Virus record (IMG/VR): IMGVR_UViG_3300011885_000055
Source: an uncultured virus (IMG/VR IMGVR_UViG_3300011885_000055)
Lineage: Duplodnaviria > Heunggongvirae > Uroviricota > Caudoviricetes
Direction: 5' to 3' (one strand)
Length of the DNA: 64,000 nucleotides
Numbering within the stretch: position 1 is the first letter of the stretch; every line of letters starts with the position of its first letter. The notes under the pieces were generated by a model. It had not been told where the DNA came from. It saw nothing but the letters and a program-made list of their open reading frames with translations, and ran no database searches. Position numbers and translations under genes: made by a program. Shown in pieces: positions 8,686 through 47,601 of the stretch.

Positions 8686-8763
8686 AAGACACCAACTTTG
8701 ATACAATCAATAAAAGGGTGTGCATTACCGTGTGCAAGGCAACCTCCTATAGTCTTATCATAA

Positions 8764-14766: not shown

Positions 14767-14789
14767 GGTATTCCCCCTTTTGGTTTATT

Positions 14790-18209: not shown

Positions 18210-18212
18210 ACA

Positions 18213-18761
18213 CTAATCCCCCAATCTGTCTATAAAAAATCGAATCGAATCAGTCAGGAATTTTATTAATTTCAAATTATCATCTGATACTAGATAATCT
18301 GAAAAAATACTTCCCTGACCATTATTAAATTGGCACTTTACATAAGTTTTATTGTTATCGACAGAATTAAGCTTTGGTATTTCACTGATTGTTCTTATCC
18401 ATTCACCAGTGCTATCTTCATAAGTATTATCAAATCTTAATTCCCAAGTATCATCAATCTGAATATTGAACTGACACTTTATACCATTGGGAATATGAAT
18501 TTTTTGAACTTCATTCAACATTTTATCTCTAAAGTCAACTTTTAAATTATATTTCTCAACATTAATCCAAAATTCAGGAATCATGTCTTTCAAATATGTT
18601 TCATTGTACTTATAGTCAGGATTTGTCAAATATATATAAGTTGCAAACAATTCAAGCAACCCATCTTTTTGAGGAGTCTTCTTGTGTTTACTCAGCTCTT
18701 TTAGCTCATTGATACACTTTAATCTATATTCTTTATCTCCCATAAAATCACCTCGTATCAT
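18213..18761 (-). CDS. Hypothetical protein between hsdS and the RT-HD gene
   Basis: 182-aa ORF, 3 nt from the RT start and 5 nt from the hsdS stop; likely start ATG 18743. Confidence 0.6.
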   Translation of the reverse strand: MIRGDFMGDKEYRLKCINELKELSKHKKTPQKDGLLELFATYIYLTNPDYKYNETYLKDMIPEFWINVEKYNLKVDFRDKMLNEVQKIHIPNGIKCQFNIQIDDTWELRFDNTYEDSTGEWIRTISEIPKLNSVDNNKTYVKCQFNNGQGSIFSDYLVSDDNLKLIKFLTDSIRFFIDRLGD

Positions 18762-18766
18762 TCAAA

Positions 18767-19927
18767 TTATAATCCATTACCGAATGACTTTTTCATCATA
18801 CTATGATAGTTGTTTTCTAACTCAGTTAAAGATGTATTAAGCAGTTTTCTTTCAGCTTCAATCATATCAATGACTTTACAAAAGTTCTTTTGGATATAGA
18901 GTTCAGGTAAAGGTATGTCTAAATCTCTTAGAATTTTCAGATTAATATTTTTTTGTGCTGACTCAGGAGCGTTAGCCTCAATAATCTTTTGTAAAAATCC
19001 AAACCATATTTGAACATACATTGATTCAACATTTTCATTTGGAATAAATGCAACAATACTATCTGGAAAACATGCATCAAATCCTAATATAGATGTTTTT
19101 GCAATATTTGCTGCAATAGTAACGCATAGAGTTCCCTTATCCCAAATTTTACTTTGTTGTAATCCTAGTTCAGAATAAGTTTGACTATAGTCATAAATAT
19201 ATAAGCCTGCATTGGCAATATCTCCAGTTTGAACAAGTGGATACTTTCCACCTAATAGTTCAGGGGCATTCCTAGGTCTATGCTTCGATTTTCCCCTCTC
19301 TAATGAACCTATTTCACCTAACTTCTTAACTTCCCACCCTTTAGGATTCGTCACCGGATCTCCAAACATCTCATAAAACACCGACTTAATCAACTCGTCC
19401 ATCAGCCGGATTTGCTCTTTTCTTGCATCAATAAGCCCCTGAGCCTTGTCCAAAACTTCAACGATTTTCTTTTGTGTTTCGAGAGGGGGGACTGGGATTA
19501 ATACATCTTTCAAAAATACTGTACTTAAATTCTTTTGTGCAATTCCATTAGAATTTTCAATACATATGTTTTCAAACTTATCACTATTTAAATAATAAAA
19601 CAAATATTTATAATAAATGTACTGGTTCTTTAGCCTAAGACATGCTACACGCTGATTTAGTGCGGCAGGCAGCAAAGATTTATCCATAATCCCTACTCTT
19701 CCAACGTTACCTGTCAAAGACATTAGAATATCATTTTCAAACAACTCATACTTTTTTAAATCCTCCATATCTTTATCACTGTAATATTGAGGAGCTTCAT
19801 CAACAATAACTCCTTTTTGCACATTAGTTATTCTAATTACTCTGTATCCCTTATTTGTGTATTTAGAACTTTTAAATGCATATCCATTTAATATGTCACA
19901 AATTTTTCCCAGTTTTAAATACTTCAT
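18767..19927 (-). CDS. hsdS: Type I specificity subunit S
   Basis: Two TRDs separated by IPVPPLETQKKIVEVLDKA...FYEMFGDPVTNPKGWE. Confidence 0.92.
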   Translation of the reverse strand: MKYLKLGKICDILNGYAFKSSKYTNKGYRVIRITNVQKGVIVDEAPQYYSDKDMEDLKKYELFENDILMSLTGNVGRVGIMDKSLLPAALNQRVACLRLKNQYIYYKYLFYYLNSDKFENICIENSNGIAQKNLSTVFLKDVLIPVPPLETQKKIVEVLDKAQGLIDARKEQIRLMDELIKSVFYEMFGDPVTNPKGWEVKKLGEIGSLERGKSKHRPRNAPELLGGKYPLVQTGDIANAGLYIYDYSQTYSELGLQQSKIWDKGTLCVTIAANIAKTSILGFDACFPDSIVAFIPNENVESMYVQIWFGFLQKIIEANAPESAQKNINLKILRDLDIPLPELYIQKNFCKVIDMIEAERKLLNTSLTELENNYHSMMKKSFGNGL

Positions 19928-19930
19928 TAC

Positions 19931-21394
19931 CTACACCATCCTCTCAATGTCATTAAGACCATCAAGAATCTGCTGTTCTAGTTCTTTGATTCTTTGAATA
20001 ATCACCTTTGATGCTTCATATTCCACTTCATCGTATTCAATTTCTTTATATCGATTGATAGATAAGTCATAACCATTATTTACAATTTCCTCTTTAGGAA
20101 CAAAGAAAGACTTCTCTGTACGCTTTCTACCCTTTTCATTTTCAAGATTATGATAACGACTGATAATATCAGGAATATCGTTCTCTTCAACTTGTTGGCG
20201 CTTATCGTCAAGGGATAGACCGTCTGCCTGCATATCATAGAACCAGACATTATTTGTGCCACCTGCACCAGTTTTAGTAAATATCATAATAGCAGTAGAA
20301 ACCCCAGCATAAGGTTTGAACACACCACTTGGCATTGAAATAATGGCTTGTAATTGATGGTTTTCTACAATCTCTTTACGAATAGACTTATGGGCATTTG
20401 AGCTACCGAATAGCACACCATCTGGTACGATGGAAGCACATCTACCACCTTTTTTGAGTGTTCTTAAAAACAAGGCTAAAAACAATAGCTCTGTCTTCTT
20501 AGTTTTAGTCACTTTCAATAAATCTGCCGATACACTGTCATAATCTAGTGAGCCTTTAAAGGGTGGATTTGCAAGAACGAGTGTATATTTTTCTCTATCT
20601 TTATTGGTTTCTGATAGAGAATCTCTATATTCGATATTCGGTCTATCAACACCGTGAAGCATCATGTTCATAGCACCGATACGAAGCATAGTTCTATCCA
20701 TGTCATTACCAAAGAACATATCCTTATGATAATGGTCTTTCAGTTCTTTAATAGTGAACATATCCTCATTATTTCGCTTTAAATACTCACCTGCCTCAAC
20801 AAGGAATCCTGCTGAACCAGCTGCTGGGTCTACAATAATATCCGTTGGAGTTGGTTGCATCAAGTCCACCATCATTTTAATGATGTGTCTTGGTGTTCTA
20901 AACTGTCCATTGGTTCCTGCTGTTGCTACTTTAGAAAGTAAATACTCGTATAAATCCCCTTTTGTATCATCCGTTGTGTTGCCTTCTTTAACTGGTAGTC
21001 CATCAATATTTGTAACAATCTTTTCTAGCATCTGTGGTGTTGGAATCATAAAGATGGCATCATCCATGTATTTGGTAAAAGCCGAATCCTTATCGCCATG
21101 CATGGTTTTGATGAATGGAAACACCTTTTTAGAAACTGTTTCATACATCCCTGTAGCACTCATTTGTTTGAATTTATGCCATCTTAGGTTTTGCTGATCG
21201 TCATTGAATATCTTGTTGAAGTCTGTACCGACAAACTCAGCCATTTTTTCTTCTTCTTTTTGCTTATCATCCAGTCCCTTTATAAATAAAAGATAGGTAA
21301 ACTGCTCGATAACAGACAGTGGATTGGTAATCCCACCGGTCCAGAATATCTCCCAAATTTTATCTACCTTACTTCTTAATTCACCTGTAATCAC
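19931..21394 (-). CDS. hsdM: Type I methyltransferase M
   Basis: GQFRTPRHII, DPAAGSAGFL, LANPPF, FKPYAGV; start GTG 21394 after GGAGG. Confidence 0.93.
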   Translation of the reverse strand: MITGELRSKVDKIWEIFWTGGITNPLSVIEQFTYLLFIKGLDDKQKEEEKMAEFVGTDFNKIFNDDQQNLRWHKFKQMSATGMYETVSKKVFPFIKTMHGDKDSAFTKYMDDAIFMIPTPQMLEKIVTNIDGLPVKEGNTTDDTKGDLYEYLLSKVATAGTNGQFRTPRHIIKMMVDLMQPTPTDIIVDPAAGSAGFLVEAGEYLKRNNEDMFTIKELKDHYHKDMFFGNDMDRTMLRIGAMNMMLHGVDRPNIEYRDSLSETNKDREKYTLVLANPPFKGSLDYDSVSADLLKVTKTKKTELLFLALFLRTLKKGGRCASIVPDGVLFGSSNAHKSIRKEIVENHQLQAIISMPSGVFKPYAGVSTAIMIFTKTGAGGTNNVWFYDMQADGLSLDDKRQQVEENDIPDIISRYHNLENEKGRKRTEKSFFVPKEEIVNNGYDLSINRYKEIEYDEVEYEASKVIIQRIKELEQQILDGLNDIERMV

Positions 21395-21424
21395 TATTGT
21401 TCCTCCCATAGTCTTTCATCTAAT

Positions 21425-26861: not shown

Positions 26862-27752
26862 TCAATTTATTGGTTCGAATAGTACTTTAAATTCTTTTTT
26901 ATTAAATTCTATATCAAAAATATCTTTAATGTTATTTGTTTTAGCAATTTCTATTAAGTTTGTTCTTGCATCCTTGTCAATTTTACTTCCTAAATATAGC
27001 TCCTTAGGCTTTGGTGTACCAATTAGTTTACTTTGCTGTGTTTTGCATAAAGTACCAATAATTCTCCATTCATTTTCATACTTCCATACTGTCGATTTAC
27101 TCACAGTTGCATAAATTCCTGCAATGTACTTATTTTTAATGTGTAAATATTTTTGTATAGATGTCAACTCATCAGTATATACTACTGGTAAAATATTCTC
27201 TTTGTATAGTTCTATCATTTCTGAAAAATCATATCCAATACAAAAACCTTTGTAAGAATTTGCATAATGACTCCACATAAGCATTGAATTTCTATACTCC
27301 GATAAACAACATACTGCTATTTCTTTTTTTAATTTTTCCCAATCATTCTCTAATTCAATTTTCAATTTAACTAAATCTATTTCCATGTCTTTTTCCAATT
27401 TTTTTCTTTCTTTTTCATAGTGCCTTTTCGCTTCTCTATTTACAGAATATTTTCTTACTTCATTTTCAACCATACTCTTTGCAATTACTAATAATTGTTC
27501 AGAAATATCTATGTTAAGTTCACAATCATAAGGATCATTAAATTCTAATGGCGATGATAAAAACAACTGATTATTTTTAAAAGTTTCTATCTTAATTTTG
27601 TCTAATTCCGCATTCCCATTAACAGATAATGACACATATTTATATAACATAAATGGTTTTTTATCTGTAGGCATAATCAAAGATCTATCTGTCTTGGGAT
27701 TCTGCACTAATGAATTTACATAGCATTCTTTCCAATCAGCCTCTTTCTCCAT
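26862..27752 (-). CDS. DUF2971 domain protein
   Basis: LYKY, FNDPYDC, CLSE...LMWSHYANSYKGFCIGY, KSTVWKYENEWR. Confidence 0.85.
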   Translation of the reverse strand: MEKEADWKECYVNSLVQNPKTDRSLIMPTDKKPFMLYKYVSLSVNGNAELDKIKIETFKNNQLFLSSPLEFNDPYDCELNIDISEQLLVIAKSMVENEVRKYSVNREAKRHYEKERKKLEKDMEIDLVKLKIELENDWEKLKKEIAVCCLSEYRNSMLMWSHYANSYKGFCIGYDFSEMIELYKENILPVVYTDELTSIQKYLHIKNKYIAGIYATVSKSTVWKYENEWRIIGTLCKTQQSKLIGTPKPKELYLGSKIDKDARTNLIEIAKTNNIKDIFDIEFNKKEFKVLFEPIN

Positions 27753-28213: not shown

Positions 28214-29625
28214 TTATTCAATTACAACTTCTATCTCCGTTCCATCAAGCAGGGTTACAATGATTTTCTCCCCTTCAAACACAGTCATCTTTTCAATAAT
28301 CCTAAAAAACAAATCCATATTAAATTCTTCTATTGGTTCTGCATTTTCTATAATTCTCATAAACTGCTTTGCCTTATATCTTTGAAGCAAGTTATCACTT
28401 TTTAAATGTTCCTTCCACTTCTCCATAAAATAATTCTTATTTTCAATAATTGCATTAAAGGTATTTATAAAAGCTTGGTATAAAACTCTATCATCTATAT
28501 GCTTATTCTCGCAGCTCTTCTCACCTTTTACAGTGTACTTCTTATTACATCTCCAAATAATTCTTCTAAGTCTTTCATTGTTGGAGTTCCATACCTTTCT
28601 CCCAAATGTACTGCCACAGTGTCCACAAATAACTCTTCCAGCAAAAGGATTATCAACTGTTGCATAATCTAATTTACTAATGTTATATTTTTCAGCAAAG
28701 GCTCTTCTTCTCTCCATTTCAAGCTGTACTGCCTCCCACATTTCTTTATCTATAATTGCTGGATGGCTTTCTTCTACATAGTATTTAGAAACCTCACCAT
28801 TATTCTCTACCCTTATCTTTGTAAGGAAATCCACCGTGTAGGTCTTTTGAAGCAGTGCATCTCCCTTATACTTTTCATTACTAAGCATTTTTCTTATGCT
28901 GCTTTCATACCACTTTGATTTTCCATTCCAATTAGGAACTCCTTCAACTTCAAGTTCCCTTGCAATCCTATTTGGGCCTTTTCCATCAATGTAATCTGTG
29001 TAAATTCTTCTAACTATCTTAGCTTGCTTTTCATCTATTATTAAGTTTCCTTCTTCATCCTTATCATATCCTAAAAACTTTTTATGGTTTACCATCACCT
29101 TACCTTGCTCAAATCTTCTTCTGATACCCAAGTAGAGTTTTCGCTTATACTCCTTGATTCATCTTGTGCCAATGAACTTAGAATCGTTAGTAAAACTTCA
29201 CCTTTAGAATCTAAGGTATTAATATTTTCTTTCTCAAAAATCACCCCAATACCTAATTCTTTAAGGCTCCTTACATAATTCAAAGTGTCAAGAGTATTTC
29301 TTGCAAATCTTGATATGGACTTTGTTATTATCATGTCTATTTTTCCTGCTTTGCAATCCTCAATCATTTTATTAAACTGCTCACGCTTCTTGGTATTAGT
29401 TCCTGAAATTCCTTCATCTGCGTAAATTCCTGCACATTCATAATCTGAATGTCCATTTATATAATTAGTGTAATAATTAACCTGTGCTTCATAGCTTGAT
29501 AACTGTTCTAATTGGTCTGTTGAAACTCTGCAATAGGCAGCCATTCTCTGTTTTGTTTGTGACTGCCTTTGAACTGAATTCCCCTGAACCTTTTTCGCTC
29601 GTATAACTGTAACACTTCTTGCCAT
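28214..29625 (-). pseudogene. Large serine recombinase, frameshifted by 1 nt
   Basis: [19 protein letters not shown], recombinase domain and Zn ribbon CGHCG; split at TGG-GTA (expected TGG GGT ATC, W-G-I-R-R) at 29127-29129. Confidence 0.88.
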
Positions 29626-30775
29626 CCTTAATTTCCTCCTTTACAATAGTTGCTTCCTTTATATTAAGTCTGCTGATTACTACATCATCAATTGATGTTC
29701 CTATGCAGGCATCTTTTCCGTTTTTAATATAATTACTACATTGCCATACTATCTTTTTACTAGAGTTTTTACTGTTCCAAGTTCTTCTCCTTAAGGTAGC
29801 TCCACATTTACTGCAGTAAAGCATTCCTGTTAATGGATACCTTTTAGTGTACTTATCTACGTCTCCTACAACGTTTCCTTTTGTTTTTCCTCTTCTCTTA
29901 ATTTCCTCTTGTACCTGTTCCCACATTTCTTTTGTAATAATAGGTGAATGATTTTCTTTTATATAGTAACTATCTATGACTCCATTGTTTCTAATTGAAG
30001 TTTTCTTTAAATGTTCTGGTGTATAGTATTTTTGAAGTATCGCATCTCCTTTGTATTTCTCATTCTTTAAAATCCCTATAATTGTACTATTGTGCCAAGT
30101 CTTATTTCCTACAGTAGGAATGTTTTCTTTATTTAACTCCTTAGCTATTTTAGATGAACTTTTTCCATTAATGTAATCATTAAAAATTCTATTTACTAAT
30201 TCTGCTTCTTCAATATTTATAACCAACTCTCCATATTCATTCTTGTCATACCCTAAGAACCTTGTAGTGTTAATCATTAACTCACCTTGTTGAAACTGCT
30301 TTCTAGCTCTCCATTTTAAGTTTTCACTTACATTTCTGCTTTCTTCCTGTGCAAAAGAAGAAAGGACGGCAATCATTAACTCACCGTCCCCTGATAGGGT
30401 ATTTATATTTTCTTTTTCAAATCTAACTTCTATACCTAATTTTTTTAATTCCCTTACAGTGTATAAAACAACAGCTGTATTTCTTGCAAATCTAGATATA
30501 GACTTTGTAATTATTATTTCAATTTTCCCTTCTCTACATAGATGAAGCATTCTTTGAAACTCTGGTCTATTATCTGTAAACCCTGTTATTCCTCTATCTT
30601 TAAAAACTCCAACATATTCATACTCTGGATTACTAGACATAATATTTTCATAATACTGTACTTGATTTTCTAAAGATTCTCCTTGCTTGTCATGAATAGT
30701 AGAAACTCTAGCATAAGCACATACTCTTTTCTTCTTTTGCACTTTTAATATAGGCTCAATAATTCTTACACGCAC
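29489..30775 (-). CDS. Large serine recombinase
   Basis: [40 protein letters not shown] Zn ribbon. Confidence 0.9.
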
Positions 30776-30887
30776 TCTAATTACTCCTTTCTATCAAATT
30801 GGTACTAACATATATCACTCTAAAAATAATAGAAGTCAAGAAATATAAAATTGAAAACCACTACCTAAACCATAAGTAGTGGCTATT

Positions 30888-30965
30888 TATTAAATATCAT
30901 AATTAAAGCATCAAATCCTGCTCTCTTCAACTTCTGTACTTGATTTCCTGCATTCTTTCTATCCC
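30888..30965 (-). pseudogene. C-terminal SPOR-like tail of a phage amidase (relic)
   Basis: Minus strand reads RDRKNAGNQVQKLKRAGFDALI, typical of endolysin C-termini found upstream of such recombinase pairs. Confidence 0.5.
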
Positions 30966-31447
30966 TTCATAAGAAGTGTAAAAAAATAACAGCAGTACAA
31001 ATTGGACTGCCGCTACCTAAAATCTTAGTATCTACAATATGTGATATTCCTACTAATATAAAGATAAGAACCTTTTTAAAAATCCCCTTAAACCCTAATC
31101 TGCTAGTAGCGTTTGTGCTCCTATAAGAGATGGCCCAAATGCATAGTAATAATAACTATAAGAACTTGATCCACTCTACACTCCAAAACAATAGCCATAA
31201 ATATGATTCTTGTTAAAGAAATACTTTCTATTATCTGCCGGGTAAACTTCCCAAAATAGTTATGATATCAACAGAAGTTGTTTTCTTGATGTTATTACCA
31301 CAAAAGAACATTCTCACTCACCCAAAACATCAATTTAATATTGACACTTATAGATATAAATGCTAATTTACAATTAGTGGTATTAAGATACAACCTAACA
31401 ATAGGAGAGCATAAAGTAAATGAATAAATTATTAGGAGGTGCTACTA

Positions 31448-32344
31448 ATGACAACAAGAGGAAAAAGTATAAATCTGTTCTTAATGGATGGTAATGCAAA
31501 CGGTCGTATGAAATGTACCCTTGCTAACTGGACAGGTGTTGCATATAAAATTCCACGTACTGAGTTAGATAAGTGTAAAGAAAGAGATGATTTAAAACAA
31601 AGTGGTGTTTACTTTCTATTTGGCACGTCAGACCAGACTGGGAAAAATGTTGTTTACATAGGTCAAGCAGGTGCAAGAAAAAATGGTGAAGGAATTCTCA
31701 ATCGCTTGCAGGAACATAAACGTAATGCTGAGAAAGATTATTGGACAGAGGCCATTGTTTTCACAACCTCTAATAATTCATTTGGTCCCACCGAAATTAG
31801 TTATCTTGAAAATCGTTTCTGTAATCTTGCAATGCAGGCAAACCGCTACACTATTAAGAATGGGAACGACCCAACTCCAGGCAATATTACAGAGGAAAAA
31901 GAAAGCGAACTTGAGGAATTTATAGATTATGCAAAAATCATAATGGGGACACTTGGACATAAGATATTCCTACCATTTACAGAGTCAAAAACTTTTATTT
32001 CTGAAGCTACCACGGACAGTGAACCAGAATTGATTCTATATCTTAAGAGAAAAACTCGAAAAAGTGGGCAGATCATTGAAGCCTCTTGCAAGCAGACTAG
32101 TGAAGGTTTTGTAGTTCTAAAAGGTAGCCATATTGAAACAATAGATTCTCCAAGCATCCCTGTGAGAATTAAGGAAGCCCGAAAAAATGCAAAAATAGAT
32201 AACCAAGAAGTATTACAAGAGGATGTTCTATTTAATAGCCCTTCCTATGCTGCTGCTTTCGTTATCGGTGGTCACGTAAATGGTCTAACCGAGTGGAAAA
32301 CTACAGAGGGAAAAACCTTGAAAGAGCTTGAAGAAGAACAATAA
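31448..32344 (+). CDS. GIY-YIG nuclease family protein with C-terminal DUF4357
   Basis: SGVYFL...VYIGQA...RLQEH; C-terminal FVVLKGS...FNSPSYAAAFVIGGHVNGLTEWK; AGGAGG RBS before ATG 31448. Confidence 0.88.
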   Translation: MTTRGKSINLFLMDGNANGRMKCTLANWTGVAYKIPRTELDKCKERDDLKQSGVYFLFGTSDQTGKNVVYIGQAGARKNGEGILNRLQEHKRNAEKDYWTEAIVFTTSNNSFGPTEISYLENRFCNLAMQANRYTIKNGNDPTPGNITEEKESELEEFIDYAKIIMGTLGHKIFLPFTESKTFISEATTDSEPELILYLKRKTRKSGQIIEASCKQTSEGFVVLKGSHIETIDSPSIPVRIKEARKNAKIDNQEVLQEDVLFNSPSYAAAFVIGGHVNGLTEWKTTEGKTLKELEEEQ

Positions 32345-32347
32345 AAT

Positions 32348-32416
32348 TAGGATTTCCAGGACTGAAAATCATTGCTGTAAAATTAACAGCAACATTTTCA
32401 ATCTCGGAAATCCTTT
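32348..32416. terminator. Long hairpin, possible bidirectional terminator
   Basis: aggatttcc...tgaaaat / attttca...ggaaatcct inverted repeat right after the GIY-YIG stop. Confidence 0.5.
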
Positions 32417-32554
32417 ATATTTAGGGCATTTTTATTTCCTAATACTAAAACACTCTTAGTAAGCTTACAACCGCCTCAGCAGTAGCTTTCTGCCATTCAA
32501 AGTTCGTCTGTGACTCCTTTTCATGGGAAAGCCTTGCATGGACATTCGTAGGTC

Positions 32555-32608
32555 TTACTTCGTCCCTGCGGTCCTTGTAAGACTAACGACTGTCTCAACA
32601 TGCGGCGT
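32555..32608 (-). pseudogene. rlmD: Orphan 3' end of 23S rRNA m5U methyltransferase gene; integration junction
   Basis: Reads TPHVETVVSLTRTAGTK*, the TxHVETV C-terminal motif of RlmD/RumA; the expected upstream DMFP is absent and an in-frame TAA lies just upstream. Confidence 0.7.
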
Positions 32609-32746
32609 GTCTTAAAATAATATCTCATATTATAATTTAGAATAACCCTAAATCATTTACCATGCATTATAAACAGTACTGTTTAAGGAAATTCAATACT
32701 TTATTAAAGTTTATAGTATTTTATAATAATTTAATATAATTTGTGT

Positions 32747-32768
32747 ATGGGCAACAAATGGGCAACAA
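32747..32768. repeat. Tandem 11-bp direct repeat ATGGGCAACAA x2 (integrase arm-site-like)
   Basis: Exact copies at 32747-32757 and 32758-32768 near the prophage end. Confidence 0.55.
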
Positions 32769-32777
32769 TGTAGCCAT

Positions 32778-32811
32778 AAAAAAGACTACGGTTTAATTAT
32801 CTTAGTCTTTT
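32778..32811 (-). terminator. Terminator downstream of the CRISPR array
   Basis: aaaagacta...tagtctttt stem with a U-run on the minus strand. Confidence 0.5.
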
Positions 32812-32824
32812 GTGCATTATAAAA

Positions 32825-33181
32825 GTGAACCTACTTCTCTTGTTAATATTAATCATTTAATTAATGTTGATAGCATTAATTAAATGGTTATTCAAACACT
32901 TCTCTTGTTAATATTGACTGTATAATGTAAGAGAACTCAGAAGATTAATTCCTCATTCAAATACTTCTCTTGTTAATATTAACTCTGAATGTGTATTATG
33001 GACAGATCACAGTGAAACTCCATTCAAATACTTCTCTTGTTAATATTAACTATGGCTAATAGTAGTCGAGCCACAAACCAGTAACCAATTCAAATACTTC
33101 TCTTGTTAATATTAACTCTTTTTCAATATAAAAATGGTATTATCTATTTGATATTCAAATACTTCTCTTGTTAATATTAAC
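32825..33181 (-). CRISPR. CRISPR array: 6 repeats of 29 bp (GTTAATATTAACAAGAGAAGTATTTGAAT), 5 spacers of 36-38 bp
   Basis: Repeats at 33153-33181, 33088-33116, 33022-33050, 32955-32983 (identical), 32890-32918 (2 mismatches) and 32825-32853 (degenerate trailer); spacers 36, 37, 38, 36, 36 nt. Degeneracy polarity implies minus-strand transcription. Confidence 0.97.
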
Positions 33182-33211
33182 TACTAGTATTAAAGTCATT
33201 CCAACAAAAGT

Positions 33212-33392
33212 ATACTTAAATATAAAATGAGAAGTATCGTAGTAGAACCCTAGTTTATAACTACTCCCCTACTAACCTTTACCAAGTAAAATATACTTGA
33301 GGCATTATCGAGTGTTAAATACCTTTAAATATAGTAATATCAATACATTTCATGTATTCACTTCTCGATTTAGGTTGGTAAATCAACCTCTA
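33212..33392 (-). ncRNA. Putative Cas12f tracrRNA
   Basis: Minus strand: hairpin AGGTTG/CAACCT, CGAGAAGTG...AACACTCG pairing, hairpin CAAGTA/TACTTG, hairpin AGTAG/CTACT, then anti-repeat ATACTTCTC (33229-33237) complementary to the repeat GAGAAGTAT. Confidence 0.75.
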
Positions 33393-33398
33393 TTGTTT

Positions 33399-34727
33399 TT
33401 AACTACATTTTACTACTTCTGTTTCTTTAATTATAATATCAACATTTGGAATAGATATATTCTTACTAGCATTTACATCTGCATTTTCCCTGTGATTACA
33501 AATTACACATTCAAATTTTCCTTGATTCTCTTTACAATTTCTATTATCTTCATGAATACATCCACAATTACTACATCTTTTAGATGTATACATAGGATCT
33601 ATAAAAATGACTTTAATACCTATCTCATCAGATTTATCTTTAATTTTTTGTTGCAAATCATAGTAAGACCATTCTTTTAGGAACTTTTTATGTACATCTG
33701 CAGTAGCCTTAGATAAATCCTCCATCTGAATTACACCACAATTATTTTTGATAGCAAAATCTACAATGTATCTACTAACTTTATGGTTATATGTGTTAGA
33801 AAAATTTGAAATTTTATTTCGTACTCTATTGATAGACTTCATTCTTGTTTTATATCCGTGTCCAGTTTTACCTTTACCAGGACATTTATTAGCAATAGAT
33901 AACTCTCTTCTTTTATTATATTCTTTTTGCCTAAACGCTATTAATTCCTTACCACTAATAACATTATTTTTCCAACTAAAATAATCCCAGTCTTTAGTAT
34001 TATTATCCCATATACTCATAGCTGCTACATTAACTATTCCTAAATCTATGCCTAATAACCTATTTACATCTAATTCTTTTAGTTGTGGCTCAAATGAAAA
34101 TGATATTATAAACTCAATTTTACCTTTTTTAGATATACTTAATTGAGATGAACCTTGTTTATATTCACCGCTAATAATCTTATTTAAAACAGATTTTTTA
34201 TTATTATCTAATTTGTCTATCTTAAATTCTATTTTATATCCTGCTTTTTCACCAATAGATTGTAATCCTTCTTTACTATATAATCCAATATCAACATAGT
34301 ATCCATTATAATTTCTCAATACATAATTATTATTCTTTATATAAACAGGAGTATCTAATTTATATGTAGGCAGATTGGCCCTATAATTAATCACATCTTT
34401 TTTTAATCTTTTCCAGTCATTTTGAACCAATTGTTGATGCATTGTACTTACATTAGAAGTATTACATATATTCATAATATCTTTCATATGCTTCTCAACA
34501 ACATTTCTATAGGTCTTCCCATAAGTATTTTTCTCATACTCACTTTGATCGAAGTTTTTATCTTCATTCTTTTTCTCAATAATCGATATAGCATAGTCTT
34601 TCCACATGGATATACCTTTATTAGCAGCTTTACATGATAAATAACTCATATCCTTTATTATTTTTTTCACTTCTCTAATATCTCTATTTAAACATTTATT
34701 TAACACTATCTTTATAGATTTATTCAT
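33399..34727 (-). CDS. cas12f: Type V-F CRISPR effector, Cas12f1-like (TnpB-related RuvC nuclease, about 442 aa)
   Basis: RuvC-I LGIDLG, RuvC-II IQMEDL, Zn finger YTSKRCSNCG...CVIC, RuvC-III NADVNA; IISGEYK, FEPQ, GHG, WSYYDLQQKI and IPNVD..I match AsCas12f1 as recalled; adjacent to the array. Second ATG (34727) fits RBS spacing better than 34733. Confidence 0.88.
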   Translation of the reverse strand: MNKSIKIVLNKCLNRDIREVKKIIKDMSYLSCKAANKGISMWKDYAISIIEKKNEDKNFDQSEYEKNTYGKTYRNVVEKHMKDIMNICNTSNVSTMHQQLVQNDWKRLKKDVINYRANLPTYKLDTPVYIKNNNYVLRNYNGYYVDIGLYSKEGLQSIGEKAGYKIEFKIDKLDNNKKSVLNKIISGEYKQGSSQLSISKKGKIEFIISFSFEPQLKELDVNRLLGIDLGIVNVAAMSIWDNNTKDWDYFSWKNNVISGKELIAFRQKEYNKRRELSIANKCPGKGKTGHGYKTRMKSINRVRNKISNFSNTYNHKVSRYIVDFAIKNNCGVIQMEDLSKATADVHKKFLKEWSYYDLQQKIKDKSDEIGIKVIFIDPMYTSKRCSNCGCIHEDNRNCKENQGKFECVICNHRENADVNASKNISIPNVDIIIKETEVVKCS

Positions 34728-34810
34728 ACTCATATCTCCTTTCTTTGGATATGGTATGTAAAATATTAAAATATATTCGTATTAGTTAAATTAATAAATT
34801 AGATTTTCCT

Positions 34811-35569
34811 CTAGGCATAGTTTGTTATTATTAATTCTTTATATTTTTTACGAGCTTCTGCTTCTCTTGATACAGAATAATTTACTTCAACTTCTCTAAT
34901 ATTAAATCCCTTATACCATTCATGTACCTTCTCATGGTCATTAATTGTTAATAAAAACTTACCTTTAATATTTTTTAGCTTATCTCTTAATATTATATGC
35001 TCTTCTTCATCAAACTTATTTCCATATCCACATGTCTCAAAGTAAGGAGGATCGCAAAAGAAAAAGCTATGCTCTCTATCATATTTATCTATTATCTTTG
35101 AAAAATCTAAATTCTCTACATATGTATTTTTCAGTCTTTGCGATAGCTCTGATAGTACATTCTTATAAAATATTTGTTGTGATGGCTTTCCAACTGTCGA
35201 ATATCCATAAACTCCACCTTTCCCTGCAAAGCTTTGAGTTATTGTATACAAAAATCTAACTGCTCTATTTATTTCTGTTAGATACTCTAAATTTAAATGC
35301 TTGTACTCTTCGAATACATCTCTTCCTGAAAACTCAAATTCAAGTTGCCTTTCTATTTCAGGAGCATGATATTTAATCATTTTATAGAGATTTATAAGCT
35401 CCTTATCTATATCATTTATTATTTCTGTTTTGCTCTGCTCTTTCCCAAAATAAACCCATCCAGCTCCAAAGAATAACTCAATATAGCATTTATGCTCTGG
35501 TATCATTTCTATTATTGTTTTTCTTAATTTAGATTTTCCTCCAACTCTACATATTGGTGGTTTTAACAT
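34811..35569 (-). CDS. DNA adenine methyltransferase (Dam/D12 class)
   Basis: RVGGKSKL, YIELFFGAG, INDID, FFCDPPY. Confidence 0.9.
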   Translation of the reverse strand: MLKPPICRVGGKSKLRKTIIEMIPEHKCYIELFFGAGWVYFGKEQSKTEIINDIDKELINLYKMIKYHAPEIERQLEFEFSGRDVFEEYKHLNLEYLTEINRAVRFLYTITQSFAGKGGVYGYSTVGKPSQQIFYKNVLSELSQRLKNTYVENLDFSKIIDKYDREHSFFFCDPPYFETCGYGNKFDEEEHIILRDKLKNIKGKFLLTINDHEKVHEWYKGFNIREVEVNYSVSREAEARKKYKELIITNYA

Positions 35570-35601
35570 ATCATCACTACCTTTACATTAAATACACTCT
35601 A

Positions 35602-35630
35602 ATTATACCGAACACATTTTCGTATGTAAA
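35602..35630 (-). promoter_or_regulatory. Sigma-A promoter with an embedded LexA/SOS box-like operator
   Basis: TTTACA-N17-TATAAT on the minus strand; CGAAC-ACAT-TTTCG at 35609-35622, one mismatch from the Bacillota consensus CGAAC-N4-GTTCG. Confidence 0.7.
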
Positions 35631-35729
35631 GTATATGTTTTCTTTTTAACTTTATTGCCCTGTGCATATAACTTACTTTAAGAGTTTATAATTTATTTGA
35701 GTTCATCCTAAATATTTGATTATTAAAAG

Positions 35730-35753
35730 AAAAAAGGTAGCAGTAATGCTACC
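35730..35753 (-). terminator. Intrinsic terminator
   Basis: GGTAGCA-TTAC-TGCTACC hairpin plus U-tract. Confidence 0.7.
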
Positions 35754-35785
35754 CTAACTTTTTATTATTACTCTTTGACTTTGTC

Positions 35786-36397
35786 CTATTTTAAATTGAA
35801 TTGAGCTTTAATCTCTAACTTATCACCACTAAAAGTAAAGTTAGCATTTGAACCATCTTTATTCATCCATGTGTACATTATAGATTCCATATCCATAATT
35901 CTTGTTTGAGAAGTTAATTGACCTTCACCTAATATTGCTTTAACTTCATCATATGTCATTCCTTCTGTAGCTTGATTATATTTTTCTAACGTTATCCCAG
36001 CGTCCATATTACCTAATCCAACTTGAGCTTTTGCAGTTACTTCATCATTTTGTATTGTAACATTAACATTACTTATTCCTGAACCATTCCAAGTATACAT
36101 TTTACTTTTAATGCCGCCTATTTCTGATGAACTTAACTCTTTTCCTTCTCCTAGTATTGCAACCACTTCATCATATTTAGCACCCATGTTTATTTTTAAG
36201 AAATTTTCATAATTTATTTTTGTATCTTCTTTCTTTTCTGATTTCTTTTCTTGTTGTTTTTCAGCTGATTTTGTTGAGTTTTCATTCTTTGTATCAGTCT
36301 TATCTTCTCCTCCATTAATTGCAGCAGCAATAACAATTATAACTATAATAAGCCAGAACCACCATCTTTTATAAAACTTCTTATTCCCTTTTGCCAT
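35786..36397 (-). CDS. Membrane-anchored DUF3862/BLIP-like repeat protein (moron)
   Basis: KKFYKRWWFW plus TM helix; two repeats of I..E.Y..I..GM.YDEV.AILGEG. Confidence 0.7.
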   Translation of the reverse strand: MAKGNKKFYKRWWFWLIIVIIVIAAAINGGEDKTDTKNENSTKSAEKQQEKKSEKKEDTKINYENFLKINMGAKYDEVVAILGEGKELSSSEIGGIKSKMYTWNGSGISNVNVTIQNDEVTAKAQVGLGNMDAGITLEKYNQATEGMTYDEVKAILGEGQLTSQTRIMDMESIMYTWMNKDGSNANFTFSGDKLEIKAQFNLK

Positions 36398-36534
36398 TTG
36401 ATTAACCCCCTAAATTTTTAGTTTACATGAATATCTTACCATTTTATAAGATATTGTCAATTCATTGTGTATAAATTTTAAATTATATGTCTATAATCTA
36501 AATACATCTTAAACAATATTCTCATACAAAAGAA

Positions 36535-36572
36535 AAAATAGGCTAGTAAGGATTTTATTCCCTACTAGCCTT
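36535..36572 (-). terminator. Intrinsic terminator
   Basis: aggctagta...tactagcct stem. Confidence 0.6.
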
Positions 36573-36659
36573 TAAATTATATTAAATTTTCAAATATCAT
36601 GATCCATCAAGTAAAACCTTACAAGTAATATTATTACCTCAAATTTTTAAATTACTATT

Positions 36660-36986
36660 TTATTTTTGTGAAGCATCAGATGTATTTTCTTCAATTTTAT
36701 TTTTCTTTTTAACCCATTTTATACAATATATAAAATAAACTCCTAGTAATATTATAAGAATGATACTTGCATACCATGGTATTCCAAATTGGTAACTATT
36801 ATTAAAACACCATATTAATTTATCTATACAACTAGTAGTATGTATCATCACTATAAGTAATAGACAAAATATACCGCCTATTAAATTTACTCTTCCTTCC
36901 TCACTGCTTGTTTCAGCCTTTATACATTCTATAAATGCACCCTTAATAATTTCTATAATTGAATCTTCCGGCCTATTTGTATCCAT
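36660..36986 (-). CDS. Hypothetical two-TM membrane protein
   Basis: Two hydrophobic helices; overlaps the upstream gene. Confidence 0.55.
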   Translation of the reverse strand: MDTNRPEDSIIEIIKGAFIECIKAETSSEEGRVNLIGGIFCLLLIVMIHTTSCIDKLIWCFNNSYQFGIPWYASIILIILLGVYFIYCIKWVKKKNKIEENTSDASQK

Positions 36987-37584
36987 ATTTACTCCTACCT
37001 GTTTTTATAGACACTAATCCTGTTGATAACCAGCCTAATCCCATTAGTACTCCAAAAATATAGATCACAGGATGAATAATATAAATTCCATTTGTGATAA
37101 ATAATACAATGCCCATAATTGAAAGCAAAATAACTACAGTAGATATTGAAATTATTTCAGTATGTGCATTTTTTAAAGCTTTAACTTTTTTTAATCTCAT
37201 ATTTTCATCCTCCTTACTAATTTCATTTTCCTTAATAGTATTATTATATTTTAATAGTACTGTAATATTCTCAAATGTAGCTTTATTATTAATTATTTTA
37301 TTTTCAAATTTATTATTGGGAACTTCTTTCTCAACAATTCTATCTGTATACATTATTTCTTTATTACTATCATTATATACACAAGTCTCATATATTGCAC
37401 TACCTAAATAATTAACATTTTGTGTATTATTTGATCTAACTATTCCATTGGCTGCTACAGTTATACAACATACAATCGCTCCTTTAGTTATAAAACTATT
37501 GATTGCAGGTCTATTATTTGAATTTAATACTTTTATTCCTATATCTTCGTTCATACTAGACATTGCCTTCTGTTGCCTTTGCAT
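36973..37584 (-). CDS. Hypothetical membrane protein
   Basis: Two C-terminal TM helices; true start likely near 37563 or 37554. Confidence 0.5.
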   Translation of the reverse strand: MQRQQKAMSSMNEDIGIKVLNSNNRPAINSFITKGAIVCCITVAANGIVRSNNTQNVNYLGSAIYETCVYNDSNKEIMYTDRIVEKEVPNNKFENKIINNKATFENITVLLKYNNTIKENEISKEDENMRLKKVKALKNAHTEIISISTVVILLSIMGIVLFITNGIYIIHPVIYIFGVLMGLGWLSTGLVSIKTGRSKYGYK

Positions 37585-38161: not shown

Positions 38162-38989
38162 TTATTTTAAATGTTCATATACTGCCTGTGCAGTTTCATT
38201 TCTTCCAGCTCCATAATGGTGCTTAGTTGCTTTCATATCTTTTAATCCACCACCAACAGCATGTACAGAAGTACCTCTTATGAATCCTTTTTTATACTCT
38301 TCATCAGATACACATATAGAATCTTCATTTCTAGCATTAAGAATCCTATCAAAGAACTCTGCTGTAACTTTATCTGCAGTACCTTCTTTATAGACAATAA
38401 CATTTCTATATTTCTTAATATTAACATTGCTATTATTAGTCTTAATAGCAATACCTAAATGCTTAAGTATTCCATGAGCTATAACAATACCATTCCTTTT
38501 CTGCTCTGCTACTGTATCTGCTATTTGTACATCTTGTTTATTGTCTAGGAAACATACCTCAACTATTACTGCATCCATATTAGTATTACGGATCACATGG
38601 TAATAGTCTTTATTGTCACTACCTTTTTTCTCATAAACTTTCTTTTGTTGTCCTAATTTAGCAGCCATTTCATTTAAAATTGAATTAGCTAATTTTTGCC
38701 CCTTTCCTCTATAGATAGAGTGTATTCCTTCTCCTCTATCTCCACCACCAGCATTATGATGTATAGATACAAAATAATTTACACCTAGACTATTAGCCTT
38801 AGAAGTCCTTGCGTCTAGAGATACAAATACATCTGTTGTTCTAGCTTCACTTACAGTAACACCATGTCTTCTTAATTCAGCAGCACAAGAAAGTCCAGTA
38901 ACCAAATTAGCGTTTTTCTCTACTACACCATTTCCAACTGCTCCACTATCACTTCCACCATGTCCATAATCTAAAAATACCTTTGCCAT
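38162..38989 (-). CDS. Endolysin, N-acetylmuramoyl-L-alanine amidase (Amidase_3)
   Basis: VFLDYGHGGSDSGA...EK, FVSIHHNA, AVIVEVCFLDN; start ATG 38989 after AAGGAGG. Confidence 0.92.
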   Translation of the reverse strand: MAKVFLDYGHGGSDSGAVGNGVVEKNANLVTGLSCAAELRRHGVTVSEARTTDVFVSLDARTSKANSLGVNYFVSIHHNAGGGDRGEGIHSIYRGKGQKLANSILNEMAAKLGQQKKVYEKKGSDNKDYYHVIRNTNMDAVIVEVCFLDNKQDVQIADTVAEQKRNGIVIAHGILKHLGIAIKTNNSNVNIKKYRNVIVYKEGTADKVTAEFFDRILNARNEDSICVSDEEYKKGFIRGTSVHAVGGGLKDMKATKHHYGAGRNETAQAVYEHLK

Positions 38990-39048
38990 AATATATTCCT
39001 CCTTAAATTTTGAAAAATAAAAGAGTAGGATTGCTCCCACTCTGTAGA

Positions 39049-44598: not shown

Positions 44599-47500
44599 CT
44601 ATGCAAACTGCAAGTCTCTCATGCTCTTTTTACTAGCTTTAGCTACTTCATAAGGACTTTCTACTTTGCCATAGAAATTATTAGTAACATTTACTCCATT
44701 ATTCTTATTAGGCTCGATTTTAGTTTTTTCTATATCGGTACTAGGCATATTCCCATATACTCCTACACTCATATCTGTACTTAACCCTTTTATAGCATCA
44801 GTTACTAAATATTTGCTATTATTTATTCCTTTAGCTAAACCATCCATAAAGTCTGGCATCCATGTTTCGTAATCTGTTAAAGGCCCTTCATCCGGTACTG
44901 AGAAGTGCAAAAAGTTTCTTATCCTCTCTCCTACACTTGAAACTGCATCTACTACGCCACCTATCATTGATTTTATTCCATCAATTAATCCCTGAATAAA
45001 GTCCTTTCCCCATGTAATTGCTTGACTAGGTAATGATGTTATAAATTTTATAGCATCATTAAATCCATTTGTAATATAACTGCCTAAGGTATTAAGAATA
45101 GAACCTATTCCTTTCTTTAAGCTAGAGAAAATACTTACTCCTAAGTTATATAGTGTGCTGGGTAAATTTCTAAAAAAGTTAACTATCCCATTAAAAATAT
45201 TTACTACTGAAGTAGATACCCCATTACAGATAGATACTATTATGTTCTTAAATCCATTCCATGCACTTGAAGCAAGATTTTTAATTCCATTCCATATGCC
45301 ACTAAAAAAATTCTTTAGTCCATTCCAAATTGTTGTTGCTACAGTTACTATTCCATTCCATGCCGCAGTAAGAAAATTAGCTATAGCTGTTACAACTCCA
45401 GTAAATACTCCTTTAATCCCTTGCCATATAAGAGAAAATGCAGCTTTCAAATTATTAAATATTCCTTCTGCATCTGTTTTTAGCTTAGTAAAATTACCTG
45501 TGACTAAATCTATTATTAGAAGTATTGCTCCTAAGAATATATTTTTTATTACTTCCCATATACCCATAAAGAAGTCTTTTAAACCTATTAATATCATTGA
45601 TATACTATCTTTAAATAAATTAAACAGTATCATTACTCCATTTATAAAAGGTGTAATTATGGCCATCACTAAAGAAACTATACTATTCCAAACATTAAAG
45701 AAAACCATTTTAATACTTTCCCATACAATTTGAGTTATATCTCTTACTTGCCCCCACAGATTACTAAACCATCCTGGAATACTTTGAAAAAATAAAACTA
45801 ATCCATTCCACGCTTCTGGTATTGTAACTGTAAAGAAATTTACAAGTGCATCTATAAAAGCTCCTGTTAACTCTTTTATATTATTCCATAATCCAATCCA
45901 AAAGTTTCTAAAACCTTCTGACTTATTCCATAGAACTACAAAGGCTGCTACAACTGCTAATATAGCTATAACTATCCATGTAAGTGGACACGCTAGAAAT
46001 GCTAAATTTAATCCATTTTGTGCTACTGTTGCTGCTCCTGTGGCTGTAGTTTCAGCTGCAATTGCAGTGGTATGCAATGCTTTAGCTGTAGCTATTTTCC
46101 CATAAAGTCCTATTAATGCACTTACTCCGGTTGCCATCTTACCTACTATAATCAATAGTGGGCCTACTGCTGCTACTATTCCACCTATTATAATTATCAT
46201 CTTTTGTGTTTCTGGTGATAAACTACTAAATTTTTGTGCAATACTCTTTAAAGCTTCACTAACACTCTGAAACATTGGAGCTAATATATCCATTATTATT
46301 TCTCCAACTTCTCCCATTGTTACTTTTACATTCTGCATAGCAAGTTCTGCATCATATCCACCATCTACAAGCCCATCAAAAGTATTATCAACGGTTCCAT
46401 CTGCTCCAGCAATAACATTTAACATCTCTTCAAATTCAAATCTTCCACCTTTTATTGCATCTGCAAGGTCAGGACCTGCTTTAGCTCCAAATATTTCTAT
46501 GGATTTTGTTGTTGCACTTGCAATATCAGGACAAGATTTTATTTCTTCTAATGTTTTTTTAAATTCTTCTCTAGAATCTTTACCTTCAGCACTCCAATTA
46601 CTGATAGCTTTTTTCATACCACTAAAAGCTATCTCTGTATTTACTCCAGCTTTTTCCCAACTAGAGAATATTGCAATACTCTCTTGGGTTTCAAATCCTA
46701 AAGCTCTCATAGGAGCACCATACTTAGTAAGATTTTCAGTAAGTTTATCTATGCTTATTCCACTTGCTTGTGCTGCTACTGCTAAACTATCTAATACACT
46801 AGAATATTCACTAGAATCTATACCAGCATCACCCATAGCTCTACTAACTAATTGCACAGATGTTAATGCATCTGTTCCGGTAACTTCTGAAAACTTCATA
46901 AATTTTTCTGTACAGTTCTCTAATTCTTCACCTGTAAAACCAAATCTAGTATTTACTTCACCTAAAGTACTTCCTATATCTCCAAAATCACCAACTACAC
47001 TTTGTGCTACTTTTTTATAACTATTTTCTAGCTTTTCTGCTGCTTCTCCAGTTGCTCCAGTTGCTCTGATTACATTGTCAGCACCTTCATCTACAGCATT
47101 AAATGCAGCTACTCCTGCTGTACCTACTGCTGCTATTCCTGCAGTAACAGGTAATAATGCTTTACCTACTTTTGTAGTTTTAGTTCCAAACTCATCAATT
47201 TTATCTTTTGCATTTGTAAGACTTGAGCTCATACCAACTCCGAAATCTTTAGCTTCATTGGTTAACGATTTTAATTTATTTTCTGTACTTGCAATTTCTC
47301 TTTGGAAATCTCTATATTGTTCTGATGTTATTTCACCTTTATCAAATTGAGCTTGAACCTGTTCTTGTGTGCTTTTTAGTATAGTTAGCTTACCTTTTGT
47401 ATTAGTTATACTTTCAGTTAATAGGTCTTGTTTTTGTTTAATTAAATCAACATTGCTTGGATCCATTTTTAATAAACTATTAACGCCTCTTAATTCCCTC

Positions 47501-47601
47501 TGTAAAGACTTACTGTTGGAATCTACTTCATTAAGAGCCTTATTAAGTTTCGTAGTATCTCCACCAATTTCAACTGTTATACCTTTTATGCTTCCTGCCA
47601 T
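44599..47601 (-). CDS. Tail tape measure protein
   Basis: IKGITVEIGGDTTKL N-terminus, Trp/Phe periodic repeats, LHFSVPDEGPL. Confidence 0.93.
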   Translation of the reverse strand: MAGSIKGITVEIGGDTTKLNKALNEVDSNSKSLQRELRGVNSLLKMDPSNVDLIKQKQDLLTESITNTKGKLTILKSTQEQVQAQFDKGEITSEQYRDFQREIASTENKLKSLTNEAKDFGVGMSSSLTNAKDKIDEFGTKTTKVGKALLPVTAGIAAVGTAGVAAFNAVDEGADNVIRATGATGEAAEKLENSYKKVAQSVVGDFGDIGSTLGEVNTRFGFTGEELENCTEKFMKFSEVTGTDALTSVQLVSRAMGDAGIDSSEYSSVLDSLAVAAQASGISIDKLTENLTKYGAPMRALGFETQESIAIFSSWEKAGVNTEIAFSGMKKAISNWSAEGKDSREEFKKTLEEIKSCPDIASATTKSIEIFGAKAGPDLADAIKGGRFEFEEMLNVIAGADGTVDNTFDGLVDGGYDAELAMQNVKVTMGEVGEIIMDILAPMFQSVSEALKSIAQKFSSLSPETQKMIIIIGGIVAAVGPLLIIVGKMATGVSALIGLYGKIATAKALHTTAIAAETTATGAATVAQNGLNLAFLACPLTWIVIAILAVVAAFVVLWNKSEGFRNFWIGLWNNIKELTGAFIDALVNFFTVTIPEAWNGLVLFFQSIPGWFSNLWGQVRDITQIVWESIKMVFFNVWNSIVSLVMAIITPFINGVMILFNLFKDSISMILIGLKDFFMGIWEVIKNIFLGAILLIIDLVTGNFTKLKTDAEGIFNNLKAAFSLIWQGIKGVFTGVVTAIANFLTAAWNGIVTVATTIWNGLKNFFSGIWNGIKNLASSAWNGFKNIIVSICNGVSTSVVNIFNGIVNFFRNLPSTLYNLGVSIFSSLKKGIGSILNTLGSYITNGFNDAIKFITSLPSQAITWGKDFIQGLIDGIKSMIGGVVDAVSSVGERIRNFLHFSVPDEGPLTDYETWMPDFMDGLAKGINNSKYLVTDAIKGLSTDMSVGVYGNMPSTDIEKTKIEPNKNNGVNVTNNFYGKVESPYEVAKASKKSMRDLQFA

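Follow-up and report, generated by a model that had tools for sequence, protein, structure and literature searches.

We conclude, with a probability that we put at about 85%, that a short stretch of the minus strand of this viral DNA encodes the tracrRNA of a type V-F1 (AsCas12f-like) CRISPR system that a temperate phage carries in its accessory region. The DNA analysed, referred to below as the window, is 64,000 nucleotides long. On the minus strand, the cas12f gene is followed by a gap of 216 nt (33398-33183) and then by the CRISPR array (Table 1). The original prediction, made from the letters of the DNA, proposed that this gap holds a tracrRNA with the stem order of AsCas12f1. This reading is borne out by a covariance-model match, by the covariation that stem 1, stem 4 and the anti-repeat show, and by the Cas12f1 gene that directly precedes the stretch. 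In design the locus follows the known AsCas12f pattern, and it is a further natural example of the AsCas12f-type family.

The cas12f gene and its phage setting

Judging from its sequence, the 444-residue open reading frame upstream of the gap is a Cas12f1 with intact RuvC residues. It matched the Pfam families Cas12f1-like_TNB (3e-18) and also OrfB_IS605, and PADLOC models for Cas12u3 (2e-116) and Cas12f (3e-110). The best solved relatives in the PDB are the AsCas12f entries 8J3R, 8J1J, 8J12, 8DZJ and 7WJU (E ~1e-68), and none of the RuvC residues D230, E338 and D419 varies among 18 aligned homologues. No match to Cas1, Cas2 or Cas4 was found among the 52 ORFs scanned in the window.

The phage is a tailed, temperate one, and the cas12f locus is part of its accessory region. 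Two candidate defence genes reported by PADLOC, PDC-S31 (26862-27752) and PDC-S14, flank the integrase region that adjoins the locus. Elsewhere in the window, a type I restriction-modification operon (hsdR, hsdS, hsdM) occupies 11443-21409 on the minus strand; in it, hsdR and hsdS are separated by an inserted 1139-residue reverse transcriptase (PADLOC RT_UG24) together with a small RT-associated gene. A second type I restriction-modification system is present in fragments at 5373-8801. Loci homologous to the cas12f locus are present in 26 IMG/VR viral contigs, among them L081, which is 85% identical. The related loci used below were found by an alignment-based search of genome contigs; a single-protein search of contigs gave none. 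The DNA of the locus had no match in the phage collection.

Table 1. Features of the cas12f locus and landmark genes of the phage (positions in the window)
Feature	Position	Strand	Description
tracrRNA gene	33201-33392	minus	Covariance-model match at 33391-33281 and nhmmer match with the close-relative profile; predicted ends
Stem 1	33372-33389	minus	AGGUUG (33389-33384), loop AUUUAC, CAACCU (33377-33372); pairs kept in 17 loci
Short anti-repeat	33383-33379	minus	Stem-1 loop bases AUUUA; pairs with repeat end UGAAU; loop covaries with repeat end
Stem 2	33309-33367	minus	CGAG (33367-33364) with CUCG (33312-33309); encloses conserved GAAGUG / AACA and a variable inner stem
Stem 3	33283-33299	minus	Hairpin CAAGUA (33299-33294), loop UAUUU, UACUUG (33288-33283)
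Stem 4	33240-33274	minus	Two-tier hairpin: 8-bp outer stem, internal loop, 5-bp inner stem
Long anti-repeat	33215-33237	minus	Core AUACUUCUC (33237-33229) pairs with GAGAAGUAU of the repeat; tail partly pairs with the repeat 5′ half
Second anti-repeat-like element	33201-33222	minus	UAUUUAAGUAUACUUUUGUUGG; complementary to almost the entire repeat, last bases included; the duplex has G-U pairs and a bulge
Leader-proximal box	33183-33200	minus	AATGACT and TTAATACTAGT; abuts repeat 1
CRISPR array	32825-33182	minus	Six repeats, five spacers of 35-37 nt, start-to-start 65-67 nt
Identical repeats (four)	33153-33181, 33088-33116, 33022-33050, 32955-32983	minus	
Repeat with two changes	32890-32918	minus	
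Last, degenerate repeat	32825-32853	minus	
Weak terminator-like hairpin	32778-32810	minus	AAAAGACUA ... UAGUCUUUU, then UU; seen by eye; -7.4 kcal/mol, z -1.7
cas12f	34733-33399	minus	444 aa; type V-F1 / V-U3 effector; RuvC D230, E338, D419 and zinc ribbon
D12 adenine methyltransferase	34811-35569		Precedes the cas12f locus in the listed order
BLIP / superinfection-exclusion-like protein			Between endolysin and D12 methyltransferase in gene order
Endolysin	38162-39040		
Tape measure protein	44599-47601		
Terminase	53323-55005		Then portal and major head protein
PDC-S14 candidate defence gene	31439-32344		PADLOC; between the cas12f locus and the integrase in the listed order
Serine integrase	29489-30775		

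Homology and covariation of the scaffold

A covariance model, R1 (135 positions, 23 pairs), was built from 11 As-like loci, with the window and its close relatives left out. Run against both strands of the 64-kb window, R1 gave a match at 33391-33281 on the minus strand (35.9 bits, E 2.9e-7), the next match having an E-value of 2.7. The 5′ half of the window RNA, comprising stems 1 and 2, aligned well to the model, whereas the 3′ half did not. Alignment to a covariance model of this kind had been suggested as a check on the original prediction, and its result is favourable. Against 162 related loci, R1 gave 131 matches at E ≤ 0.01, all of them on the cas12f strand. A search of Rfam gave no family for the region, the best match within 30000-37000 being at chance level (E at least 0.48). 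Compared with shuffled sequences, the folding of the 216-nt stretch had a z-score of -2.5, and -3.8 with repeat 1 included.

Stems 3 and 4 differ from those of the As-like loci, and their backing comes from the close relatives of the window. A profile of eight close loci, including the window, gave 31 matches among the related loci, and from these we drew 17 contiguous stretches, each beginning at stem 1 and closing with repeat 1, which were aligned with MAFFT (alignment A3). In the RNAalifold consensus of A3, stem 1 and the outer stem 4 are present, and repeat 1 is paired with the long anti-repeat. We then counted pairs on A3 for a structure that we named ourselves; besides stem 1 and the outer stem 4, it has the last five repeat bases paired with the stem-1 loop and the repeat paired with the long anti-repeat. 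In this structure 96.0% of 423 cells were paired, compared with 86.7% after shuffling and 26-47% when the partner was slid by 1-3 columns. Changes on both sides were found in 14 of the 25 pairs, and none of 500 shuffles reached any of the five measures, these shuffle statistics being inflated by kinship among the loci. Stems 2 and 3 were left out of the count because the MAFFT register shifts there; stem 2 rests on the 11 As-like loci and stem 3 on folds of single sequences.

The hairpins, the CGAG/CUCG frame and the anti-repeat described in the original prediction are all present on the minus strand at the positions given in Table 1. The location of stem 2 is matched by R1, and in the 11 As-like loci its CGAG/CUCG frame is invariant while the inner stem covaries. 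The motif of AsCas12f1 that is equivalent to the stem-2 motif forms base triples according to a preprint (10.1101/2023.07.03.547593). The two strands for which pairing had been claimed here, CGAGAAGTG (33367-33359) and AACACTCG (33316-33309), are both present on the minus strand, but they pair directly with each other only through the 4 bp of CGAG:CTCG; the remaining helix comes from the flanks of the inner stem. A hairpin was found at the place of stem 3 in all 17 related loci when each was folded singly. The predicted hairpin arms AGTAG (33273-33269) and CTACT (33245-33241) lie within the two-tier stem 4, a shape that was seen in 16 of the 17 loci, again folded singly, and four of the five outer pairs of stem 4 that were counted on A3 show compensatory changes. 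By eye, position 6 of the stem-1 loop and a base before stem 4, which correspond to G14:C92 in AsCas12f, may form a covarying tertiary pair.

By analogy with AsCas12f, the tracrRNA's 5′ end would lie 3 nt before stem 1, and its 3′ end would probably fall between 33215 and 33183. A consensus scan for a promoter of the tracrRNA or the array gave 13 sites, compared with a mean of 20.9 in shuffled sequences, and none of them was convincing. A -10-like TAAAAT is visible by eye at 33412-33407. In related loci where no gene precedes the tracrRNA, TATAAT-like hexamers can likewise be seen by eye 10-20 nt before stem 1.

Two contacts between the tracrRNA and the repeat

Over its first nine nucleotides, the long anti-repeat is perfectly complementary to GAGAAGTAT of the repeat, and complementarity falls to 76-77% over the remainder, in agreement with the perfect and then partial pairing that had been described for this element. 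The duplex of the long anti-repeat and the repeat has an energy of -11.5 kcal/mol in the window (z -3.4), and its z-scores range from -1.4 to -4.8 across all 17 loci. Both sides change in six of the nine pairs of this helix in the 17 loci, and the sequence of the anti-repeat follows that of the repeat from locus to locus. Pairing begins 7 nt in from the end of the repeat, and the last six repeat bases are left free.

Across the family, the stem-1 loop is complementary to the repeat-end bases that the long anti-repeat leaves free. This pairing of AUUUA with UGAAU is a contact that the original prediction missed; it is the short pseudoknot known from AsCas12f. On A3, 96.5% of the cells of the helix between the stem-1 loop and the repeat end are paired. 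The combinations include AUUUAC with UAAAU or UGAAU, GCUUAA with UUAAGU, and GUUCAG with UGAAC, and further ACUCGG with CGAG, ACUCCA with GGAG, and ACUGCU with GCAG. We compared cognate and non-cognate combinations (32 distinct combinations from 42 loci), with the repeats of eight loci and the loops of five set by hand beforehand and L037, which contains an N, dropped. The mean Watson-Crick run was 4.09 for cognate and 2.56 for non-cognate combinations; with G-U pairs allowed, the means were 4.50 and 3.51. None of 10,000 permutations reached the observed value in either comparison. Both base-pairing contacts are shown by covariation. In AsCas12f, a long repeat/anti-repeat duplex is accompanied by a short pseudoknot of 5-7 bp, the latter being needed for targeting (PMC11246509), and the AsCas12f1 sgRNA comprises stems 1-4 together with R:AR-1 and R:AR-2, of which R:AR-2 stacks on stem 1 (10.1101/2023.07.03.547593).

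The array, its spacers and the type I-B repeats of hosts

The degenerate last repeat of the array fits transcription from the tracrRNA side. The hairpin that follows the array is absent from the list returned by the consensus terminator scan. The spacers had no match at E ≤ 0.05 in phage and plasmid collections. L081 (85% protein identity) has the same repeat as the window and different spacers. We also compared the DNA contigs of four sequencing runs. Run X2 yielded an 18.4-kb contig that covers the locus; X1 and X3 contributed short pieces, and X4 nothing. The X2 contig differs from the window mainly in its spacers, one repeat-spacer unit being replaced; it carries at least 61 substitutions, and all 40 of those listed lie at or below position 33126. 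The differing spacers in L081 and in the X2 contig indicate that the array changes among near relatives, although the locus has no adaptation genes.

Four of the five host genomes of related loci carry cas1. In Clostridium brassicae (L002, L188 and L191), a full type I-B operon (Cas8b, Cas7, Cas5b, Cas3, Cas4, Cas1b, Cas2) shares a contig with the cas12f locus, and the repeats of the I-B array and of the Cas12f array are identical over their last 17 nt. These 17 shared bases are exactly the part that is contacted by both anti-repeats. In Sarcina ventriculi (L014 and L189), the repeat of the Cas12f array is very like the repeat next to cas1. In the other two cas1-bearing genomes, the repeats next to cas1 are unrelated 37-38-mers. 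In Clostridium novyi, Cas14a-like genes with similar repeats have been described on mobile elements and only in I-B strains (PMC8473940). The likeness of the repeats, as read from the sequences of relatives' hosts, suggests that spacers may be acquired in trans and that guides are possibly shared. An extension of this idea, of which we are doubtful, is that both anti-repeats of the window are tuned to a repeat family shared with I-B systems; the phage Cas12f, which comes without cas1, cas2 and cas4, could then gain spacers through host I-B adaptation and might load host I-B guides.

Linker, second anti-repeat-like element and competing folds

Exactly 32 nt separate the long anti-repeat (33215) from repeat 1 (33182). 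The short distance noted in the original prediction is thus real, but a comparison of 42 loci shows that it is the family norm and not a special property of the window. Measured from the tracrRNA start, repeat 1 is reached after 113-153 nt in 14 of these loci, about as many as the model has positions (135), so that the anti-repeat there abuts the array. In 17 close loci including the window this distance is 169-215 nt, and in two loci that carry inserted boxes it is about 320 nt; among the As-like loci, it is 179-218 nt in four and 259-285 nt in five, including L024. In most related loci, AATGGCT and about 11 further nucleotides stand at the place before repeat 1 that is equivalent to the AATGACT box of the window. 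L014 and L017 carry three copies of an AATGGCT-type box, about 45 nt apart, in a longer linker. Candidate roles for the AATGACT box are a promoter, a processing site or a protein site.

On the side of this box away from repeat 1, the second element UAUUUAAGUAUACUUUUGUUGG covers the repeat bases required by the stem-1 loop. No other site in the window forms a better duplex with the repeat: its energy is -15.8 kcal/mol, compared with -13.3 kcal/mol for the first 30 nt, the part containing the long anti-repeat. The best site begins at the long anti-repeat in 14 of the 17 loci and lies downstream in three (the window, L107 and L005). An element complementary to the last 14 repeat bases beat all but 0-6 of 300 shuffles in 8 of the 17 loci. 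For the window, 22 of 300 shuffles did as well, the search span cutting the element short. We rejected the second element as a family-wide feature, since it stands out in these eight loci only. It may be a decoy masking repeat 1, a processing duplex by which the tracrRNA's 3′ end is set, or part of an array promoter.

Co-folding, which had been suggested as a check on the pairing of the flagged anti-repeat with repeat 1, gave a divided answer. The 17-locus consensus contains this pairing, whereas in the minimum-energy fold of the window repeat 1 pairs with the second element (33222-33201). In the minimum-energy fold of the isolated RNA, the long anti-repeat pairs with the tracrRNA's own GAGAAGU. 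The middle of the repeat is identical to the conserved stem-2 motif GAGAAGU of the tracrRNA (window 33360-33366 and 33230-33236; also in L081), and the long anti-repeat can therefore pair with the 5′ part of its own RNA.

Scaffold copies and a fused guide in relatives

L107 (62% identity) carries two scaffold copies after cas12f. At L107:2896-3135, stems 1-4 are followed by a 22-bp anti-repeat:repeat hairpin, UUAAGU, a guide-like tail and a terminator-like hairpin, and the UUAAGU matches the stem-1 loop of the same scaffold. This segment is, on its modelled fold, a putative natural single guide. No second match to the guide within three mismatches was found in L107. The first eight guide bases recur in the cas12f promoter region (~1391), a match that we set aside as too short to count. 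Two to four tracrRNA-like scaffold copies each, on the cas12f strand, were also seen in L032, L147, L165/L166 and L020. At L090:4231-4500, a scaffold copy precedes a minimal array, made up of one full repeat, 19 nt resembling a spacer, and no more of a further repeat than its last 11 nt.

Alternative readings of the stretch

A reading of the stretch as a mere 3′ UTR with an array leader, or as the decayed omega-RNA of a TnpB transposon, either without helper-RNA function, has to accommodate the covariance-model match and the compensatory changes in four helices, as well as an anti-repeat that tracks the repeat between loci, a protein that PADLOC assigns to Cas12u3 / Cas12f, and an array whose spacers differ in relatives. 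Pfam and PHROGs label the Cas12f protein family as transposase, and short complementarities arise easily in this region because it is AT-rich; even so, we regard this reading as very improbable and retain that of a tracrRNA.

A second question is whether the tracrRNA and the array form one transcript in which, by folding in cis, the anti-repeat, a 32-nt loop, repeat 1 and spacer 1 would make up a natural single guide used by Cas12f, as the original prediction had raised. The consensus scan found no terminator-like site on the minus strand between 33240 and 33183, which allows read-through, and the only terminator-like hairpin, a weak one, is 3′ of the array. We consider read-through transcription from the tracrRNA into the array a realistic prospect, at slightly less than even odds. 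The topology in cis equals that of engineered sgRNAs, the 17-locus consensus fold joins the long anti-repeat to repeat 1, and a truly fused form occurs in the related locus L107. In addition, the tracrRNA and the array stay adjacent and co-oriented even in L082, L095, L098 and L003, where they lie upstream of cas12f. However, there is one tracrRNA gene for five spacers, and a fold in cis covers spacer 1 at most; the tracrRNA would therefore act in trans for most of them. The minimum-energy fold of the window would mask the short repeat segment, and the short distance to the array is what the family generally has. Furthermore, spacer 1 is not conserved in L081 or in the near-identical contig of run X2, and because it differs in both, the window locus has no fixed guide. 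The AsCas12f and SpCas12f1 proteins, moreover, yielded separate tracrRNA and crRNA (PMC8548392). Taken with these points, a functional unprocessed single guide is unlikely and somewhat disfavoured relative to a tracrRNA that would act separately from its crRNAs.

Comparison with known systems

According to published work, Cas12f1 tracrRNAs are situated between nuclease gene and array, and covariance models have served to predict them (10.1101/2025.08.14.670346), and the AsCas12f1 tracrRNA is a 169-nt RNA between gene and array (PMC8548392). The AsCas12f motifs named in the original prediction are real: the Sulfoacidibacillus thermotolerans locus L024 reads CCGAGAAGTG ... AACGCTCGGTAAGG. All nucleotides numbered in the AsCas12f1 preprint (10.1101/2023.07.03.547593) fit L024 when counted from ATTCG, namely G14, G27-G32, C63-C67, G74-A76, G88-A90, C92, C101, A103-C107 and G109-A111, and because of this fit, L024 appears to be a fair stand-in for the published AsCas12f1 RNA.

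As in the window, the tracrRNA of AsCas12f1 is flanked by cas12f and the array, and all are on one strand (8J12, 7WJU, 8DZJ; PMC8548392; 10.1101/2023.07.03.547593). The two RNAs also share the order of stem 1, a CGAGAAGUG...CUCG stem 2, stem 3, stem 4 and the long anti-repeat, and the pairing of the stem-1 loop with the last repeat bases, and AsCas12f is the best solved relative of the window protein. On the other hand, the window tracrRNA aligns to the As-like model in its 5′ half only, its stem 4 has an extra inner hairpin, and pairing of its long anti-repeat starts 7 nt in from the repeat end. The window further differs from AsCas12f1 in its AT-rich 29-30-mer repeat, in the second anti-repeat-like element downstream, and in the 32 nt between anti-repeat and repeat 1, which number roughly 130 in the Sulfoacidibacillus locus. 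In relatives of OsCas12f1, RhCas12f1 and MG119, the tracrRNA directly precedes the first repeat (PMC10090079; 10.1101/2025.08.14.670346). The start-to-repeat distance there is the 113-153 nt given above, and the window has about 30 more linker bases, in which the second element and the AATGACT box lie.

The idea behind the single-guide proposal is that of the natural single guide tracr-L of Cas9, in which the tracrRNA is joined in cis to a repeat-like segment (Workman et al.; 10.1101/2020.05.21.102756; 10.1101/2023.03.03.530964). The guide of tracr-L, as described there, is short and fixed and is directed against its own promoter, whereas the window has an ordinary, variable first spacer; the fused form was seen in the related locus L107 alone. 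In TnpB proteins derived from Cas12f1, the tracrRNA and a half repeat are re-fused into an omega-RNA (PMC10691335), so that a half repeat near a tracrRNA is part of a path described in this branch. Those TnpBs are nuclease-dead and RpoE-linked and have lost the array, whereas the window retains the catalytic residues and a six-repeat array. Cas14a-like (V-U) genes of clostridial phages and PICI-like islands resemble the window in lying on mobile elements without cas1 and cas2 and in having repeats of a similar kind (gttgagaatcaacaaaggatatgtttaagc as printed), and all V-U strains listed in that report carry I-B as well (PMC8473940). They differ from the window in protein and host, and the term tracrRNA is absent from the main text of the report.

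Proposed mechanism and significance

By analogy with AsCas12f and SpCas12f1, the RNA would be expressed with the ends given above, would be processed, and would act in trans. It would begin just past the stop codon of cas12f and fold into stem 1, stem 2 (CGAG...CUCG), stem 3 and the two-tier stem 4. The long anti-repeat 3′ of stem 4 would pair with the middle and the 5′ half of each repeat of the pre-crRNA, and the stem-1 loop AUUUA would pair with the last five repeat bases UGAAU to form a short pseudoknot beside the guide. A Cas12f dimer would then bind this scaffold, and the spacer would direct it to DNA adjoining a T-rich motif.

The two-site contact with the repeat was earlier shown in AsCas12f by structure and mutagenesis, and the comparative set adds support from natural covariation. 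The second anti-repeat-like element, the I-B-like repeats and the fused single guide of a relative are more open matters than the tracrRNA itself. With an apparently intact AsCas12f-type system of 444 residues, the locus adds one more candidate for a compact editor, and the mapping of the scaffold from stem 1 to the long anti-repeat, together with the short pseudoknot, is enough to design a single guide. The locus is also an example of a phage that bears CRISPR against its rivals.
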